A DNA stretch of 64,000 nt from contig CP070695.1 in assembly GCA_020353515.1 (NCBI GenBank), positions 3,193,532 through 3,257,531 on the forward strand. Direction: 5' to 3'. The notes under the pieces are model-generated. The model was not told where the DNA came from and made no database searches. It saw nothing but the letters and a program-made list of their open reading frames with translations. This DNA comes from Candidatus Heimdallarchaeota archaeon (GTDB taxonomy: Archaea > Asgardarchaeota > Heimdallarchaeia > Hodarchaeales > Hodarchaeaceae). Position numbers and translations under genes: made by a program. Numbering within the stretch: the first letter of the stretch is position 1; each line of letters opens with the position of its first letter. This document shows positions 14,052-45,969 of this stretch, piece by piece.

Positions 14052-14320
14052 AATAAAATTCAAAGAGCCGAGAAAAATTCGATGATAACCAATAATCTTT
14101 AACCTTATTTATCCTGACAAGAAATAAACATTGTTTATAGTTCATCTCGGGTTTTCTTCCAAACAATAGAAGAAAAAGAGAGGCTGGGTAGAAAAATCTT
14201 AACATGGTACTGATTGTTCATCCCCAATCCACTTGCGCATTCGGCGGAGGGCTCAATCGCGTCTGACAACTATTGAGACAAAAACGACGCAATATTTTCC
14301 CTTATCTCCTGCTTTCATCA
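14050..14320 (-). pseudogene. Remnant duplicate of the acyl-CoA reductase 3' end plus the Cys-rich gene 5' end
   Basis: Minus strand reads KQEIRE...DAIEP/LRRMRKWIGDEQ, then MNYKQCLFLVRINK. Compare KQQIRD...DAIEPLHRMCKWIMDEK and MIFKSCLYLVKSNE at 16270-16520. Confidence 0.75.
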
Positions 14321-14408
14321 AATGATCGAAAAACTAGTACAGAATGTTCTAAAACCTAGGCTATTAAACTCACTCTTCTTTTGCATAATTGTCCTTTTGG
14401 AGGCTATC

Positions 14409-16013
14409 ATGGTTATTATCTATAAAAATAAATCTTTTTTGTTGGTTTTTCAGATTTTCCTCCTCATCGGTTTACTCCCCTTAAGTAACGTCTTTAGTAT
14501 AGATGAACATACGTCCCATGCTCAATATAGTCAAAGACAAACTAGAACTAAATTATTAGATTTCAAAGGATGCAGTGTGTTAAAGCATTCTAATCGTGAT
14601 CGGCAAAACCATGAGCTCTTAACTTCTCAAAATACGCAAAAAGTGTCTAAGAACATGGATACGCACGAAGTTGGCTATCAACGAACCTTCTGGATCTGGG
14701 ATTTCGAAGATTTATCTCACTATGAAATAAATGCGACAATACTTGCAGTAGGCGAGTATAGTTATATTTTCATGGAAAATGTTTGTATATCAGACCTAGG
14801 AGAATCATTTGCGATTGAATATTCCGAGTCCATACGTGACGAATTTGATAGCACAATTTTTCCTCGAGTTACTGATTTGGCTGGACATCCCAATGGAACA
14901 TTAGGAGATATTGATAATGATCCTAGAATTATTATTCTACTCGCTCGGGAATTGGTATCTTACTATTCCCAGAGAAACGAACAGGAATTGGAGTATTCGA
15001 ACCAATGTGAGATGTTTTATATCTACTATAGATTGTTTCAATGGCCTTACCGTGTTTTTCAGGCAATTGCACATGAATTTCACCACTTAATATGGTTTAA
15101 CAACGAAATGGATGAACCTCAATTCATCCTAGAGGCATTAGCAGAATATGCCATGTATCATAGTGGGTACCTAGCGCCTTTTGGCAACATCAGCTCACGA
15201 ACCAATGATTTCCTTTCACATCCGGAAGATTCTCTTCTGCATTTTAATATTGATAGTGAGGAAGGATTAACTAGAGCTATTGATTACGGAGGTGGCTATT
15301 TATTTGCTTGCTATATCGCTGAACACTACGGAGTGGATATCCTCCGAAACCTGATAACTGAATCGGCTGATGGGCCTATAGGACTTGAAAACGTTCTAGA
15401 AATGGCTGGTTATAATATCTCTTTTAATGAGCTTTATCTTGATTGGATCACAGCTGTGACAATTAATGAGTTAGGATTTAGTGATAACCTCTACGGCTTT
15501 GAGAATCTAAACGCCCGAATTTCTAGATATGATCTTGTTCACGAACTTCCCCTTGTCAATGAAACTATTCCACTTCGCTATTATGGGTTCCACATTTATA
15601 AATTGGAATCCCCACCTAATAATTTCGCAGTGAAAATTAACAAAGCCTCATATCAGACATTAGGTGTCTCCATTGCTTTTCATGACACCGCTGGTTGGCA
15701 TATTCACCAATATCTTCATGATGAAAGGGAGATTCAGGTCACTGATCACCTTCAAGGAAATTCAATTGATGTAGCATATGTAATAACAAGTTTTATATCA
15801 GGGAATACCCCCATTGTAACCCGTCCTAATTATGGACTTGGACCATTGATAGACATTGAGATCTCTATAATCCAGACACCTACTCAAACTAATACTACTA
15901 CACATCAGACTTCCAAAAGTACTACAACAGATGTTTCTACTGGTTTGAATGGAGTAATAGTATTAATTACCTTTGCTACTGTTTTGATTATTCTTCTAAA
16001 GAGCAGAGATTAA
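14409..16013 (+). CDS. Secreted zinc metallopeptidase (M30/hyicolysin-like) with C-terminal anchor
   Basis: GDIDNDPRIIIL, AHEFHHLI (HExxH), EALAEYA, DYGGGYLF, T-rich linker plus TM. Likely start ATG 14409 (ORF track gives 14322). Confidence 0.8.
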   Translation: MVIIYKNKSFLLVFQIFLLIGLLPLSNVFSIDEHTSHAQYSQRQTRTKLLDFKGCSVLKHSNRDRQNHELLTSQNTQKVSKNMDTHEVGYQRTFWIWDFEDLSHYEINATILAVGEYSYIFMENVCISDLGESFAIEYSESIRDEFDSTIFPRVTDLAGHPNGTLGDIDNDPRIIILLARELVSYYSQRNEQELEYSNQCEMFYIYYRLFQWPYRVFQAIAHEFHHLIWFNNEMDEPQFILEALAEYAMYHSGYLAPFGNISSRTNDFLSHPEDSLLHFNIDSEEGLTRAIDYGGGYLFACYIAEHYGVDILRNLITESADGPIGLENVLEMAGYNISFNELYLDWITAVTINELGFSDNLYGFENLNARISRYDLVHELPLVNETIPLRYYGFHIYKLESPPNNFAVKINKASYQTLGVSIAFHDTAGWHIHQYLHDEREIQVTDHLQGNSIDVAYVITSFISGNTPIVTRPNYGLGPLIDIEISIIQTPTQTNTTTHQTSKSTTTDVSTGLNGVIVLITFATVLIILLKSRD

Positions 16014-16035
16014 TCTATTCCTGAATAAATTACTA

Positions 16036-16341
16036 CTACTCATCAAAATAATGCTGCCAAAAATAGCAGGGTTTACACAAAGGGTTTTCCTGGGGATAAA
16101 GAGTACAATAATAAGTTGGAATTCTAGTTTCAGCTATTTGTCGTGTGAAATAATTACATGCAATGTCATACCCACTCTCTTCCACTTCTCTAAACCTCCC
16201 TTCCTCACCTCTAACGAAATAATTGCATCGAATAGAACAAGGATTTAGCTTATTGATCCAATATTTAAATTTAAGGCGGTATCCTGTTTTCTCATTTGAC
16301 TTAACAAGGTACAGACACGATTTAAAGATCATTTTCCTCAT
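16036..16341 (-). CDS. Small Cys-rich hypothetical protein
   Basis: MRKMIFKSCL...CSIRC...C...YCTLYP...LCKPC. Start placed at 16341, downstream of the reductase stop. Confidence 0.6.
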   Translation of the reverse strand: MRKMIFKSCLYLVKSNEKTGYRLKFKYWINKLNPCSIRCNYFVRGEEGRFREVEESGYDIACNYFTRQIAETRIPTYYCTLYPQENPLCKPCYFWQHYFDE

Positions 16342-16360
16342 GTCTAGGAGGAAAGAGTTT

Positions 16361-16960
16361 CTAATATGATATGGATTTTTCATCCATAATCCACTTGCAC
16401 ATCCGGTGAAGGGGTTCGATCGCGTCTTGTGGAGTGGTGAAACTTCCATTGGGTGCAAATCCTAGAGATACAATTCTTTGGACACCGTGGAGGATTAATT
16501 CATCTCTGATTTGTTGCTTTAAAGACTCAGGGTAGATTCCAACGATCTGGGTGTAAGCATTTACTGATTGGAGTGCAGTTCGGACATCATCAATTGGTAC
16601 GAGATTTACCACTCGACCGCAGAGTTGATCTGAGAAATCTACAGGTTCATCCATCTGACTGACAATCACAGCTCCTTCGTTTTCGTGACCCCCAAATACC
16701 CGATAAAACATATCATCCTTTCGAAGGCCATCGATGTTACTTTTGAGATCTACGTCGAATTCTTTCGCAGGAGTGGAGACATGACTGGGAAGGTTTACTA
16801 ACGCGTAGTATAGGTAAGCTTCTAATTCATTCAATTTATCAATCCCCATATCGTCTGTTCCTGACTACATAGATCACTCGACTATTCACACAGGCTTCTT
16901 GATTGGATTCCCCAATATCAATCGCTACTCGTTGTGCAACTGTCCGCATCGTCTCCTCAT
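16361..16960 (-). pseudogene. Long-chain acyl-CoA reductase (LuxC-family) pseudogene, 3' part only
   Basis: ORF 16361..16849 (TQIVGIYP, HGVQRIVSLG, QDAIEPLHRMCKW) plus frameshifted upstream pieces VAIDIG / NQEACVNSRVIYV / SGTDDMG. The N-terminal half is absent. Confidence 0.85.
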
Positions 16961-41785: not shown

Positions 41786-43153
41786 TTGATCCTAAACGAC
41801 ATTTTAGAGAAGGTTCCGAATTATACTGATTTTTTAACGGTCAAAGAACTGAATGAATCTAGTAAGAAACTAGAGGATGACTTTGAATCGGTTGAATTAA
41901 CCGAGATTGGAAGATCTAGAGAAGGGAGGCCAATTTCATATCTTAAGATAGGAAAAGGGGCAAAAAATGCACTTCTTTTTGCATTCCCACATCCAAATGA
42001 GCCTATCGGAAGCTTAACGATCGAATTTCTTTCCCGATTTCTTGCAGAAAACCCAGAAATAACCAAGGAATTAGGATATACATGGTATTTAATTAAAGCG
42101 ATCGATCCAGACGGAGCAGCTCTCAATGAGGACTGGTTTAAAGGAAAATTTGATCCAGTCAAATATACCAGACATTATTACAGACCTGCGCCACATGAAC
42201 AGATTGAATGGACATTTCCAGTTAAATATAAGAAATTAGAATTCTTAAATCCACCTTCAGAGACTCAAGCCCTCATCCAGTTGATCGATAAAATAAAACC
42301 CACTTTCATGTATAGTCTCCATAATGCGGGTTTCTGTGGGGTTTATTGGTATGTTTCCCACGCTATAGAAGATGTATTCTCACGATTACCACAGCTTGCA
42401 GAACAAGTACAATTACCTATCCATCGTGGTGAGCCTGAAGCTCCTTTTATCAAAAAACTACGTCCTGCAATTTTCCAGATGTTTGGAATCCAGGAAGATT
42501 ATGATTTTTATGAACAAAATGGAGTTGAAAATCCTCAAGATCTAATATTATGTGGTACATCGTCAGATGATTATCTCAAACAGGTAACTGCAGGACAGGG
42601 ATTCACCTTGGTATGTGAGATGCCTTATTTTTATGACAAAGACTTAGGAAATGAAACCCCTTCTGATTATAATCGTAGAGAATTGGTTTTAGAATATTTA
42701 CGATTCTGGCAAGAAGCCCACAGCTTCGTGAAACCGAAATTCGAGTCCATAAGGCAATATTGTGACCCCTCTTCTAGAATTTTCACAGCAGTGGCAGATG
42801 GTGTTGAAAATTTTGACAAACGAATTGCACCTCAAATTCATCATGCAAAAACCTCACCTATGTATGAAGGGGAAGCAACCATTGCCCAAGCTTTTGATTC
42901 AATGGTAGCACGGAAATACTGGGCAGTTTTTCGTCCAGCGATGACCGCAAGACTGTGTAAAAGGGCAATCACAAGCCATCCTGAAGTAAAAACCGAATTA
43001 ACAAACATAAAAGCTGAACTTGATCAGTGGGTTGAACACACGATCAATGATACTCTAAAGGATACTCATTTTGAGGTGATCCCTATTCAGAAACTAGTAA
43101 AAGTTCAGGTAGGATCTGCGTTAATTACCATGCAACATTTAACTAATCGTTAG
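41786..43153 (+). CDS. M14-family zinc carboxypeptidase
   Basis: IGRSREGRPI, PHPNEPIG, IDPDG, YSLHN. Confidence 0.9.
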   Translation: MILNDILEKVPNYTDFLTVKELNESSKKLEDDFESVELTEIGRSREGRPISYLKIGKGAKNALLFAFPHPNEPIGSLTIEFLSRFLAENPEITKELGYTWYLIKAIDPDGAALNEDWFKGKFDPVKYTRHYYRPAPHEQIEWTFPVKYKKLEFLNPPSETQALIQLIDKIKPTFMYSLHNAGFCGVYWYVSHAIEDVFSRLPQLAEQVQLPIHRGEPEAPFIKKLRPAIFQMFGIQEDYDFYEQNGVENPQDLILCGTSSDDYLKQVTAGQGFTLVCEMPYFYDKDLGNETPSDYNRRELVLEYLRFWQEAHSFVKPKFESIRQYCDPSSRIFTAVADGVENFDKRIAPQIHHAKTSPMYEGEATIAQAFDSMVARKYWAVFRPAMTARLCKRAITSHPEVKTELTNIKAELDQWVEHTINDTLKDTHFEVIPIQKLVKVQVGSALITMQHLTNR

Positions 43154-43251
43154 GCTATAGAGCTAATTGAATTAGCTCTAAAATGATACCCAGATTCTCT
43201 TCAGTGTCTAGATAAGCAAACTTAACCATCTCTTGAACTATACCCCTCTCT
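43064..43251 (+). repeat. Copy 1 of a diverged direct repeat: carboxypeptidase 3' end plus VOC-gene 3' remnant
   Basis: Aligns to 45381-45628 except for the intergenic spacer. Confidence 0.95.
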
Positions 43252-43371
43252 TCAACTTAAAAGTGCACTAATTTCATCCCAGTATTTAATGAAGTTAGAT
43301 TTTCACAAAGTTTATTCAAAATCTCACCCCTTCTTTTATCTTTTTACTAAAGTACTAGTTCTTGAAACTTG

Positions 43372-45282
43372 TTATTTGTTCCTTTCCCTATTTTTTTCTG
43401 ATCTCTTAATCAAAATGATTCCAAAACATGCGATGAAAACTATGAAAGAAAATCCAGAAGTGCTAGCTATTGAGGTACTTGTAGTTTTAGAGGTTTGAGT
43501 CATATTCATTGGAGTAGTTGATAGATCCTCTGAAGTAGTAATGGGTACATCAAGTATACCCCAATGCCAGTCTTTAAATCGAAGAAGACTGATGTATTCA
43601 CCTGTAATGTATTCATCCCATTTATAGGGACCAGAACCAATCATTTGCTCATCTGTTGGATTAAAGGTCATGACATCTGTTACGTCTTGCCAAATGTGCC
43701 ATGGTACAATATATGGGAAGTTAGTAACATCACCCCACTCAAAGTAGCCAGTCTTATTAACAAAAAATTCGATAGTATAATTGTTAGGTATCTTAACATT
43801 ATAGATATCATTGAGTTCTTGGGGAGACCATAGACATTGCTTTGCAAGGTCAAAAGAATGCTTAACGTCCAAAGAGGTGATTGGTTGTCCATCATGCCAA
43901 GAAGCATTTTCAGGTAGGTAGAATGTGAATTTCTGGCCGTTTTGGGTGCCAGCAGCAACGTTTTCTATGGTTGTTTCGATGTCCCAATCATAAGCCAAAC
44001 CTGGGATTGGAGCCCATGTATTAGGATCAACATTCCATAACTTCTCATAGATGTATTGAAAGACTGTAAAATCATATTTTGATTGCTGTAAATAACAGTT
44101 TCTAGTGCTAAGATCAGCTGACAAGCAATATTTGAACGTTCCACCATACGGACCCCCTTTAGATTCTATTAAATGGATTTTTGTAGCAAAATATGGATTA
44201 TTACCATCAGAGATGCCCCTGCCATTGAAACTAGCAAAACCCTCAAATTTGTCTGTACGGTAGGCATTAGTGAATACAACGTTGTAGGCGACAATCTGTG
44301 GTTGTTCATAAACCAATAGCTTATTGACTTCGTGGGCATATTTCTTTATGTCTTCAACCGAATTTGAATTCACCATTTTATCAAGGATAGTCTCAATTGT
44401 TGTGTTTCTGAAGCAATAATAGTCCCAATCTTTACCACTGCTATGAAATCGGTTGTAAAGTATTTTTGCTGTATTGACAACAGGAGTACCCTCAGTCCAA
44501 CACCCAACCTGAAATGCATTAAACCAATTACCTGAAACGGGATAGGATGGAACAAGAGTCGCACGCATCCCCATCGATTGAAGACCTTCTGCAGCTATTT
44601 CACAAGTGATGCGGGCAGGGCTATATCCTTCAGAATAGGAAAATTCAATTTCACAATCTTGATCATCTATGTCTACACTCGAATCATAAATCCTGTTATC
44701 GTTGACATCATATTCACGCCAACCATCACTGTCTAAATCGATAAATCCAGCATTCTCAAGAGATAAATTACCAGAAATTGAATCAGCCTCATAAAAATAT
44801 TCTGTCAATTGGCTTTCGATTTCCCATTCCGTTGCAGCAGTCGGAATATAACTATCCATGGGTTGTCCAGCACCTCCAACAGCTTCAATATTAGCCCTAT
44901 ATTTATCCATACCAAAGGCCATTGCTCGACGGTACCCAGTAATATTGGTAGGAAATCGGCCACAATTTGGGGTTATCACGCGATATCGTAAGTCTGGTGT
45001 AAATCTAACTTCAATGTCAGGATCTCTAACAAGGGCTGCTAGGTAATCGTTTGGAACTCGGTCATCATACGCGTCGATATCACCTTTTTGTAGTGCCAAC
45101 ATCGCTTGGGGGACTTCCCCCTCCTTAAAAATCACGAATCTTAATTCATCGATATATGCTCCATAAGGTAGGAAATCAGAAGACCAGCTGGAAGTTTTCA
45201 TATCTGATGGCAAGGTGTAAAGAATATTTGTGAGTGATACGACTAATAGTACGGTTCCAAATAGAAGACTAACCACTTTCAC
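43372..45282 (-). CDS. ABC transporter peptide-binding protein (SBP family 5), C-terminally anchored, orphan
   Basis: ALQKGDID, YRRAMAFGMDK, PGLAYDW, WHDGQPITSLDVKHSF, IGSGPYKW. T-rich linker plus TSGF-TM. Confidence 0.92.
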   Translation of the reverse strand: MKVVSLLFGTVLLVVSLTNILYTLPSDMKTSSWSSDFLPYGAYIDELRFVIFKEGEVPQAMLALQKGDIDAYDDRVPNDYLAALVRDPDIEVRFTPDLRYRVITPNCGRFPTNITGYRRAMAFGMDKYRANIEAVGGAGQPMDSYIPTAATEWEIESQLTEYFYEADSISGNLSLENAGFIDLDSDGWREYDVNDNRIYDSSVDIDDQDCEIEFSYSEGYSPARITCEIAAEGLQSMGMRATLVPSYPVSGNWFNAFQVGCWTEGTPVVNTAKILYNRFHSSGKDWDYYCFRNTTIETILDKMVNSNSVEDIKKYAHEVNKLLVYEQPQIVAYNVVFTNAYRTDKFEGFASFNGRGISDGNNPYFATKIHLIESKGGPYGGTFKYCLSADLSTRNCYLQQSKYDFTVFQYIYEKLWNVDPNTWAPIPGLAYDWDIETTIENVAAGTQNGQKFTFYLPENASWHDGQPITSLDVKHSFDLAKQCLWSPQELNDIYNVKIPNNYTIEFFVNKTGYFEWGDVTNFPYIVPWHIWQDVTDVMTFNPTDEQMIGSGPYKWDEYITGEYISLLRFKDWHWGILDVPITTSEDLSTTPMNMTQTSKTTSTSIASTSGFSFIVFIACFGIILIKRSEKNRERNK

Positions 45283-45380
45283 ACTTTTCAGAAAAAAATC
45301 CTTCCATTTTTCCCATAAAACACAGATAAAAGATCCTAAAATACCTAGGGTTTAATCTTATTAAACATTATATAAGTGCA

Positions 45381-45628
45381 ACTCATTTTGAGGTAATCCC
45401 TATTCAGAAACTTGTAAGAGTTCAGGTTGGATCCGCATTAATTGCTATGCAACATTTAGCAAGCTTGTGATTTAATAATCCCATGAGTAATAGATAATTC
45501 GAGAGTACAAACTACTCCAGAATTTAATCTACTATAAAGCCAATTGAATAAGCTCTAGAATGATACCCAGATTCTCTTCAGTGTCTAGATACGCAAACTT
45601 AACCATCTCTTGAACTATACCCCTCTCT
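45381..45628 (+). repeat. Copy 2 of the diverged direct repeat: carboxypeptidase 3' remnant plus intact VOC 3' end
   Basis: Encodes THFEVIPIQKLVRVQVGSALIAMQHLASL*, then the end of the VOC gene. Confidence 0.95.
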
Positions 45629-45969
45629 AATACTTTAATTCCCTCTTTCTCCAGTCTGGTTAATTCCTCTTCAATATTTTCAACAATAAAACCAATATGA
45701 TGGAGTCCTTCTCCTCTTTCTGTAAGGAACTTGGAATGAATAGTTTCACCTTCGAGAACCTGAATCAACTCAAGTTGTATTTCACCGACTTGAAATAAAC
45801 CAAATTTCAATTTACCAGAATTTACGTCTGATTCGAAAGTTAAGAAAGGGGGACCAAACATTTGCTCATAAAATTTAAAACTAAATTCCATATCCTTTAC
45901 GACAATTCCAATCTGATCAAGTTGGGGAAATTTAGAAAGAAGTGGGATCTTTTCAACATCATCAGCCAT
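45532..45969 (-). CDS. VOC/glyoxalase family, methylmalonyl-CoA epimerase-like
   Basis: DQIGIVVKD, QLELIQ, GEGLHHIGF, ILELIQ. Confidence 0.88.
   Translation of the reverse strand: MADDVEKIPLLSKFPQLDQIGIVVKDMEFSFKFYEQMFGPPFLTFESDVNSGKLKFGLFQVGEIQLELIQVLEGETIHSKFLTERGEGLHHIGFIVENIEEELTRLEKEGIKVLERGIVQEMVKFAYLDTEENLGIILELIQLAL

Follow-up and report, generated by a model that had tools for sequence, protein, structure and literature searches.

The current work describes a complete gene for a family-5 solute-binding protein (SBP) of Candidatus Heimdallarchaeota that stands between two diverged copies of one gene junction, that of a carboxypeptidase gene (CP) and a VOC/glyoxalase-family gene (VOC). 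The locus, part of a window of 64,000 nucleotides, resembles the insertions with long target duplication described in bacteria, here probably spread by homologous recombination without an integrase.

Anatomy of the locus and its empty counterpart

CP (plus strand) and VOC (minus strand) are convergent, and the cassette is located exactly at their junction. The gene order of the preliminary description (CP, VOC remnant, SBP, CP remnant, intact VOC) is confirmed by the sequence layout: the M14 CP gene is followed by 1 bp, a VOC 3' relic, an insert of 2129 bp, a CP 3' relic, a 61-bp spacer and the intact VOC, which is located upstream of the SBP gene and in the same orientation. The features are as follows.

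41786-43153, plus strand: intact CP gene, M14 zinc carboxypeptidase, 455 aa (PF00246, 38.8 bits)
43064-43251, no strand: DR-A, left CP/VOC junction copy, 188 bp, comprising CP codons 427-455, the 1-bp spacer and the VOC 3' relic (repeat search, self-BLAST, G014 alignment)
43155-43251, minus strand: VOC 3' relic, last 31 codons plus stop (alignment with the intact VOC)
43252-45380, minus strand: insert, 2129 bp, one complete transcription unit (absent at the syntenic site of G014)
Between the VOC 3' relic and the SBP gene: non-coding stretch of 120 bp (SBP 3' region)
43372-45282, minus strand: SBP_bac_5 gene, family-5 solute-binding protein, 636 aa (PF00496, 120.8 bits)
Upstream of the SBP gene, before the CP 3' relic: non-coding stretch of 98 bp with a TATA-like octamer inside
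45368-45375, minus strand: TTATATAA, candidate archaeal TATA box of the SBP gene (read from the sequence)
45381-45628, no strand: DR-B, right junction copy, 248 bp, comprising the CP 3' relic, the 61-bp spacer and the last 32 codons of the intact VOC (repeat search, self-BLAST, G014 alignment)
45381-45470, plus strand: CP 3' relic, open frame with its own TGA stop (codon alignment with CP)
45532-45969, minus strand: intact VOC/glyoxalase-family gene, 145 aa (PF13669, 61.7 bits)

The last 30 codons of the intact CP fall inside DR-A. DR-A and DR-B are unequal in length (188 vs 248 bp) because the length of the spacer differs; the long spacer agrees with the value given earlier (61 bp against about 60), and the short one is 1 bp, not about 2 bp. 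The repeated sequence occurs just twice in the 4.94-Mb genome by whole-genome BLAST and tblastn and is not a dispersed repeat. Whole-genome tblastn also found CP and VOC to be single-copy, the relics aside.

The SBP gene matches PF00496 far above the cut-off of 32.4 bits, and its product has a signal-like segment at the N-terminus and a membrane anchor at the C-terminus. The octamer TTATATAA, a candidate TATA box judged from sequence, lies 86-93 nt upstream of the GTG start, at the extreme edge of the insert. The SBP is an orphan, with no ABC permease or ATPase genes nearby and the nearest BPD_transp_1 gene more than 900 kb away. Its best homologue shares 52-53% identity; among 5.8 billion proteins no relative above 53% and no donor were found, a search of viral contigs with the SBP gave no match, and no second genome with the cassette was found in the databases searched. 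[quoted passage not shown]

Mobility genes are absent. No integrase or transposase is present within about 13 kb on either side, as the preliminary description had stated, and the neighbours are ordinary cellular genes. Tyrosine recombinases number just two in the whole genome, each more than 1 Mb from the locus, and no tRNA or ncRNA target was found at the locus itself. A DDE transposon or IS was rejected: a repeat search found no inverted repeats at the ends of the insert, and the duplication is 188-248 bp rather than short.

The genome of a congener, G014 (contig C371), contains the empty site for which a comparison of relatives had been proposed. There, CP and VOC are adjacent with a single junction, no SBP and a spacer of about 38 bp, and the synteny is identical (Lrp-TM233-CP><VOC-PNDR...TM392). 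The motifs AAGCTT and TAGATAAT are common to the spacers of DR-B and G014, and the intact VOC is 82% identical to its G014 orthologue. G014 was the sole match in a scan of genome contigs with the repeat-core pattern, and no further syntenic genomes were found across the order. A metagenome scan with CP alone found nothing; one with the CP alignment gave identities of at most 67%, too distant for the junction to be compared.

Two ancestral full-length CP/VOC pairs, formed by segmental duplication with the SBP between them and later eroded by two deletions, could also have left such a locus, and both copies could have evolved under purifying selection for a time. This paralogous origin, named earlier as a possible refutation, is scarcely credible and was rejected because CP and VOC are single-copy here and because the one pair in G014 lacks an SBP. 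Moreover, the homology stops abruptly at both repeat boundaries, with nothing significant beyond, and three extra events would be required. A tblastn hint of a longer, older VOC relic extending to about 43328 was likewise rejected as unsupported, since the similarity beyond 43251 is not significant in shuffling tests (nucleotide collinear P = 0.74, protein P = 0.10).

The possibility that an assembly or polishing artefact mixed two strains is negligible. Marker counts give an estimated contamination of 7.4%, but the genome is one closed contig of 4.94 Mb, and an independent k=31 assembly of the public reads (Logan) contains a 100% identical SBP on a contig of 2367 bp. The length of this contig is exactly that of the k=31 unitig 43222-45588 predicted from the locus structure, a prediction that is obtained only if the two repeats exist and mismatch each other specifically at 43182/45559 and 43215/45592. 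The chimeric assembly of two strains that had been raised as a refutation fails on this result; the structure is present in the raw reads and is not an assembly artefact.

Allele-like divergence of the junction copies

Outside the CP tail, DR-A and DR-B differ at 13 nucleotides over 58 codons, 11 of them synonymous and 2 non-synonymous but conservative. The distance between the copies is 7.4% (identity 92.6%), and the differences are spread over the CP and VOC halves. The codon alignment reproduced exactly the counts given earlier, that is, 12 differing codons, 10 of them synonymous and 2 with the conservative exchanges K/R and T/A. In the VOC part, all 5 differing codons are synonymous and the relic is free of indels and stops. 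The 26 codons of the CP relic are collinear with CP 427-452 and show 5 synonymous codons together with K>R and T>A; the replacement residues R and A are those of the functional CP orthologue P0004 (KLVRVQVGSALIAIQHLAK), which with P0002 is the closest to CP (86-87% identity). No indel or premature stop is found in the 58 relic codons.

Duplication in place, followed by neutral decay of the relics against a constrained intact copy, was rejected on these counts. With one lineage neutral and one constrained (kappa 1-4, omega 0-0.3), the probability of at most 2 non-synonymous changes out of 13 is 3e-4 to 4e-3, a value that comes from 13 substitutions only and takes the CP tail as one indel; if each of the 3 tail codons is scored as a replacement of its own, P becomes about 0.02-0.09. 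These last three CP codons, which the earlier codon count had omitted, are unrelated between the copies (TNR* vs ASL*, 7 of 9 nt different). Because 6 or more differences in 9 nt at a background divergence of 7.5% have a probability of 1e-5, the tail and the 60-bp difference in the spacer were read as one indel event. Orthologues of CP (84-87% identity) end in ...HL(A/S/T)K or ...LSN, and the tail TNR* is unique to the intact CP of this genome. Polarisation by G014 alone, an outgroup 17-19% diverged from either copy, places 5 changes on the relic lineages and 7 on the lineages of the intact genes, whereas the expected share of the relics is about 75% (P 0.004-0.04).

The proposal that the synonymous bias is too strong for local duplication and neutral decay is thus borne out, and the synonymous excess also supports its companion, that the remnants came from functional alleles of diverged lineages. 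In sequence, the relic halves correspond to a functional allele that has diverged by about 7% from the resident genes. A purely local event, such as staggered-break repair or tandem duplication plus insertion, would require the synonymous excess to have arisen by chance during neutral decay, and appears improbable. The deletion in the spacer of copy A and the lost stop of the CP relic would be ordinary decay, and other relics in the genome do have a ratio of about 1:1 synonymous to non-synonymous differences, with some stops or indels. Against such an event stand the 2 of 13 non-synonymous changes, relic lineages that have no more changes than the intact ones, replacements that match orthologue residues, and the intact frame of all 58 relic codons. 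As judged from sequence comparison, the allele-like, synonymous differences point to spread between lineages rather than to fresh duplication.

Routes of entry and comparison with known systems

The most economical route to such a locus, to which we give an even chance, is the homologous integration, by a single crossover, of a circular unit of repeat plus SBP that bore the junction allele of a sister lineage. The repeat-insert-repeat unit would have been born in that lineage through an insertion with long target duplication, and loop-out through the repeats would then have produced a circle with the SBP gene and one junction copy. After arrival of the circle in the present lineage, one homologous crossover of the Campbell type would have placed it in the empty CP/VOC junction by host recombination, with no element-encoded recombinase. 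A later deletion of about 60 bp in the left copy may have left the CP tail TNR* and the 1-bp spacer, and a small deletion may have taken away the original stop of the CP relic. We infer the circle, the donor lineage and the order of these events, and we assume that homeologous recombination across 7% divergence (longest exact block 36 nt) is feasible in this organism.

Campbell-type single-crossover integration is the way in which circles such as suicide plasmids or looped-out repeat-flanked units enter a chromosome. After a single crossover, the repeats differ at every polymorphism between donor and recipient along their whole length, wherever the crossover fell. As in such integrations, the insert has the homologous segment on either side as a direct copy; the two copies can be read as donor/recipient hybrids that differ along their whole length, and an element-encoded recombinase is not needed. 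At the present locus, by contrast, a replicon backbone is lacking, the circle is hypothetical, and the homologous segment is only about 190-250 bp long, with 7% divergence.

Alternatively, the insertion with long target duplication may have occurred in place, and recombination with empty-site relatives may later have overwritten the ends of the intact genes or the relics. Such allelic overwriting would yield the same pattern as integration of a circle, and it accounts for the synonymous bias with no circle at all. The class of long target duplications is documented (PMC2853133), and duplication followed by recombination with the same locus of another genome is a pathway given in PMC3457768. 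Two or more separate import tracts would be needed, however, each with an end within a repeat or at its edge, whereas a single crossover gives the pattern automatically; furthermore, the flanking genes show no recombinant tract in the data at hand. This alternative is considered rather unlikely.

CIMEs and other decayed islands, such as the ICESt-related cis-mobilisable elements, are flanked by attL and attR at the 3' end of a gene. In a corresponding reading, the repeats at the CP/VOC locus would be the attL/attR of a decayed site-specific integrative element from which everything except the SBP cargo was deleted. Islands classically integrate at a gene 3' end and supply a surrogate for it; since this surrogate has to remain functional, it would show synonymous bias too. 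The locus shares with CIMEs an integrase-less cargo between direct repeats that hold the truncated 3' end of a target gene. Several features nevertheless make this origin very improbable. No integrase or fragment of one, no tyrosine or serine recombinase in or beside the insert, and no relics of mobile element genes are found; beside one intact gene, a single complete transcription unit, there are just 120 and 98 non-coding bp. The repeat covers the ends of both convergent genes, more than a surrogate end calls for. No long identical att core is apparent: the longest stretches that match exactly between the repeats, 32 and 36 nt, lie within the VOC part, not at a boundary typical of such a core. 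Finally, no tRNA or ncRNA serves as target, and the two tyrosine recombinases of the genome are both distant.

Insertion with long target duplication is a bacterial class (Nobusato, Uchiyama, Ohashi & Kobayashi 2000 Gene 259:99; Furuta, Abe & Kobayashi 2010 NAR 38:2428, PMC2853133). The repeats of the published cases are 46-423 bp long with identities from 93% to 100% and often overlap gene 3' ends; no archaeal case passed the published screen, and a cycle of release and re-infection was proposed by the authors without evidence (PMC2853133). The present locus likewise consists of a short gene unit without transposase or integrase between long direct repeats (188 and 248 bp, the criterion being >30 bp), which are unique within the genome and align to a single-copy target in the empty-site genome G014, and the insert of 2129 bp, under 20 kb, contains no mobility gene. 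It differs in its host, an Asgard archaeon, in its cargo, a PF00496 solute-binding protein rather than a restriction-modification system, and in its repeats, which differ in an allele-like, synonymous manner and by the 60-bp spacer indel. Restriction-modification systems were the cargo in the two original papers, and PMC3457768 adds "other DNAs"; such cargo characterises the original data set and not the rearrangement itself. The repeat identity of 92.6% combined with synonymous bias argues against simple duplication in place.

An aloposon or integrated virus was rejected on the published description of those elements. Aloposons are large elements inserted at tRNA genes, and they contain giant genes in tandem and encode a ParA-like ATPase (Wu et al. 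2022, PMC8813620). They and the integrated viruses of Asgard archaea share the broad host group and the presence of cargo genes with the present locus, but the size, giant genes, ParA-like ATPase and tRNA-gene integration are all absent at the CP/VOC locus.

Recurrence in the genome and implications for gene flux

The same architecture recurs elsewhere in this genome, where a scan found about 15 further repeat-bracketed blocks. Seven other relics, when pooled, show 57 synonymous and 56 non-synonymous differences, a result that reaches significance under some assumptions only (P from 0.14 to 5e-4). The allele-like signal is clean only at the CP/VOC locus and is not claimed as general.

Gene flux is heavy in Asgard archaea, and few of its vehicles are known. 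At the CP/VOC locus, a complete gene appears to have entered a defined site without a recombinase, and the flanking repeats seem to preserve the functional gene sequence of a second lineage. In other closed genomes, such relics can be used to spot insertions of recent date and the sites that they targeted. If integration of a circle by a single crossover is the true course of events, repeat-flanked cassettes need nothing but the homologous recombination of the host to pass between related Asgard lineages, and a class described in bacteria, mainly for restriction-modification genes, would extend to archaea and to ordinary metabolic cargo. The locus would also be the first sequence evidence for the stage of release and re-infection that has been proposed but never shown for long-target-duplication units. 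Tentatively, Hodarchaeales may swap single genes as recombinase-free cassettes, through loop-out, transfer and homologous re-entry, with an allele-like repeat pair as the footprint. Together with the further blocks, such exchange could, if true, rank among the major routes by which genes move in the archaea that are closest to eukaryotes.

Structure of the SBP locus

The SBP locus has the structure of an insertion with long target duplication; in this Asgard genome it is genuine and cleanly resolved. Its order on the forward strand, obtained from the ORF listing, repeat finding and direct reading, is given below.

Features of the locus (window coordinates)
41786-43153, +, intact M14 carboxypeptidase gene (CP)
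1 bp, gap between CP and the VOC relic
43155-43251, -, relic of the VOC/glyoxalase gene (VOC), last 31 codons and stop
120 bp, non-coding, VOC relic to SBP gene
43372-45282, -, family-5 solute-binding protein gene (SBP)
98 bp, non-coding, SBP gene to CP relic
45381-45470, +, CP relic: CP codons 427-452, a 3-codon tail and stop
61 bp, spacer, CP relic to intact VOC
45532-45969, -, intact VOC gene
43064-43251, repeated unit DR-A, left copy of the CP/VOC junction
45381-45628, repeated unit DR-B, right copy of the junction

Peptidase_M14, SBP_bac_5 and Glyoxalase_4 domains (Pfam) were assigned to the CP, SBP and VOC genes, respectively. DR-A and DR-B enclose an insert of 2129 bp, and the outer boundaries of the repeated unit are abrupt on both sides. 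An extension of the VOC relic to about 43328, hinted at by similarity, failed shuffling tests. Repeat finding revealed no terminal inverted repeats at the insert, and neither tRNA genes nor Rfam matches were found at the locus. The heptamer AAGTGCA occurs at 43261-43267, 10 nt in from the left end of the insert, and at 45374-45380, its extreme right end, with a looser similarity running on for about 10 nt (chance about 0.03 by a rough estimate). This pair could be a trace of microhomology at the joint by which the unit was first assembled.

The window's genome is a single contig of 4.94 Mb. A 609-aa database protein, an exact substring of SBP, comes from a 2367-bp contig of Logan, which holds k=31 assemblies from public sequencing runs. 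The k=31 de Bruijn unitig around SBP, computed from the window's genome, is predicted to span 43222-45588, exactly 2367 bp. Its ends are fixed by 32-nt and 36-nt exact blocks common to both repeats, and thus by the positions of the repeat mismatches. Since the two lengths agree, an independent read assembly is in accord with the insert and its two inner junctions, as well as with the CP relic, long spacer and mismatches. This is strong evidence against chimerism or mis-polishing of the assembly, of which a chimeric assembly was an objection foreseen in the preliminary description.

Ancestry and divergence of the repeat copies

Among 41 relatives, the congener G014 alone has a close orthologue of CP with the same surroundings; its contig shows the matching order of Lrp, 233-aa membrane protein, CP, VOC, pyridine-nucleotide disulphide oxidoreductase and 392-aa membrane protein, with about 38 bp between CP and VOC and no SBP. 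The other objection foreseen, that the repeats descend from two paralogous CP/VOC operons that later eroded, is disfavoured because G014 has a single pair without SBP and because CP and VOC, relics aside, are single-copy in the window's genome. DR-A and DR-B differ at 13 of 175 nt (7.4%) and each copy differs from G014 by 17-19%; thus, the copies parted well after the split from G014. In a congener, locus L017 (G016:C14, 6302-6615) contains a 3' fragment of CP that has become a pseudogene, with stops in frame; its context is that of the CP locus of a related genome, G001, and not that of the CP/VOC locus. Hence, the carboxypeptidase has a patchy distribution in the genus and was lost there at least once.

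The codon differences counted in the preliminary description were reproduced exactly for both gene parts. All five differences in the VOC part are synonymous, and the CP part shows five synonymous codon differences and the two replacements K>R and T>A; across 58 codons, 11 of the nucleotide changes are synonymous and 2 non-synonymous. Under a model of in-place duplication, in which one member of each pair is neutral and the other constrained, 55-69% non-synonymous changes would be expected, and the probability of at most 2 among 13 is 3e-4 to 4e-3 over a range of kappa and omega values. The relics contain 0 indels and 0 stops, and the replaced residues of the CP relic, R and A, are those of functional orthologues such as P0004. 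In this small sample, polarised on one distant outgroup (G014), the relic branches carry 5 changes and those of the intact genes 7, while about three quarters would be expected on neutral relics (P 0.004-0.04). Differences occur across both halves of the repeat.

The last three CP codons, in which 7 of 9 nt differ (P = 1e-5 for at least 6 of 9 at the background rate), were left out of the divergence count. They adjoin the 60-bp spacer difference and were therefore counted with it as one indel; when they are taken as independent replacements, the significance drops to about 0.02-0.09. The long spacer of DR-B has motifs in common with the G014 spacer, so the derived state seems to be that of DR-A, with its 1-bp spacer and the TNR* tail peculiar to the intact CP. 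The synonymous excess, intact relics, orthologue residues and polarisation support the earlier proposal that the repeat copies are allelic. During most of the time since they parted from the resident genes, the relics behaved like pieces of functional genes.

Cargo and possible routes of insertion

The SBP gene is intact and lies in the same orientation as VOC; its product begins with a signal-like segment and has an anchor at the C-terminus. The GC content of the gene (38.8% vs 35.8% for the genome) is unremarkable. A TATA-like octamer at the extreme edge of the insert is a candidate TATA box for SBP. The family is expanded in the genus, with tandem arrays in the related genome G011 and eight family-5 SBP genes in this genome (paralogues on G000:C1 at 135519, 137724, 1205355, 1207821, 1692739, 3939152 and 4009570). 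No ABC permease lies within 900 kb, which makes the gene an orphan. SBPs are generally orphan in this genome, most paralogues of the insert's gene included; BPD_transp_1 permease genes adjoin only the 1.69 Mb paralogue among the eight. The protein database search returned no SBP relative above 53% identity anywhere; thus, the donor is unsampled.

A single homologous crossover between the resident CP/VOC junction and a circular molecule would be the simplest route to such relics in both halves of the repeat at once. Such a circle would carry the SBP gene and a sister lineage's copy of the junction, and the resulting repeats would differ at every donor/recipient polymorphism, whatever the crossover position. 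A repeat-insert-repeat unit would free such a circle when its own repeats recombine. This recombination route for the cassette is plausible but unproven. Alternatively, the repeats could have been duplicated in place and later overwritten with alleles from relatives; this accounts for the same data but calls for two or more tracts in suitable positions. A decayed integrase element is unlikely because the locus has no recombinase relic and no att-like core, the repeat spans both gene ends, and the only two tyrosine recombinases in the genome are distant, at 0.74 and 2.22 Mb.

One of these recombinase genes (G000:C1:738020-738475) adjoins a 45-bp, 91% identical direct-repeat pair (738842-738886 and 741394-741438), and this region at 738-741 kb is a candidate genuine integrative element.

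Related blocks and known insertions

Genome self-comparison revealed about 15 other blocks, comprising one to several ordinary genes and enclosed by diverged direct repeats of 45-190 bp. One repeat copy usually belongs to an intact gene, forming its 3' end or sometimes its 5' end, and the partner copy is an intergenic relic. Some blocks adjoin an ArsR-like gene, a Ras-family GTPase or another VOC gene; others contain a CLC channel or a set of signalling genes.

Repeat-bracketed blocks on G000:C1
Examples: 874563/878130, 4497348/4499134, 3054608/3056397, 1177121/1182516
More blocks: 2631380/2633662, 2492519/2498961, 3928981/3945174, 534462/540682

No recombinase was found in the cargo genes scanned. 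Synonymous and non-synonymous changes in these relics are about 1:1, frames are mostly intact, and a pooled test was significant only conditionally.

Window 14200-16427 is another relic-bracketed block: a 66-bp direct repeat of 79% identity lies at 14200-14264 and 16362-16427, the left copy intergenic and the right one the 3' end of a 163-aa gene (16361-16849, -). At G000:C1 3092441-3105709, a segment of about 60 bp from close to the 3' end of a 741-aa gene is repeated among small genes, at least six times within 13 kb; the pattern resembles a series of insertions stacked behind the tail of a single gene.

Nobusato et al. (2000) defined insertion with long target duplication and Furuta et al. 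(2010) extended the class, for bacterial restriction-modification genes, with repeats of 46-423 bp and 93-100% identity; no archaeal case passed the latter screen (PMC2853133). The proposed life cycle comprises insertion, amplification, release and re-infection, the last two without evidence (PMC2853133; also PMC3457768). The SBP locus shares the structural features of this class but differs in host, cargo and allele-like repeats. It is unrelated to aloposons and to other known Asgard elements. The locus would be of greater interest if the spread of such cassettes between lineages were confirmed.
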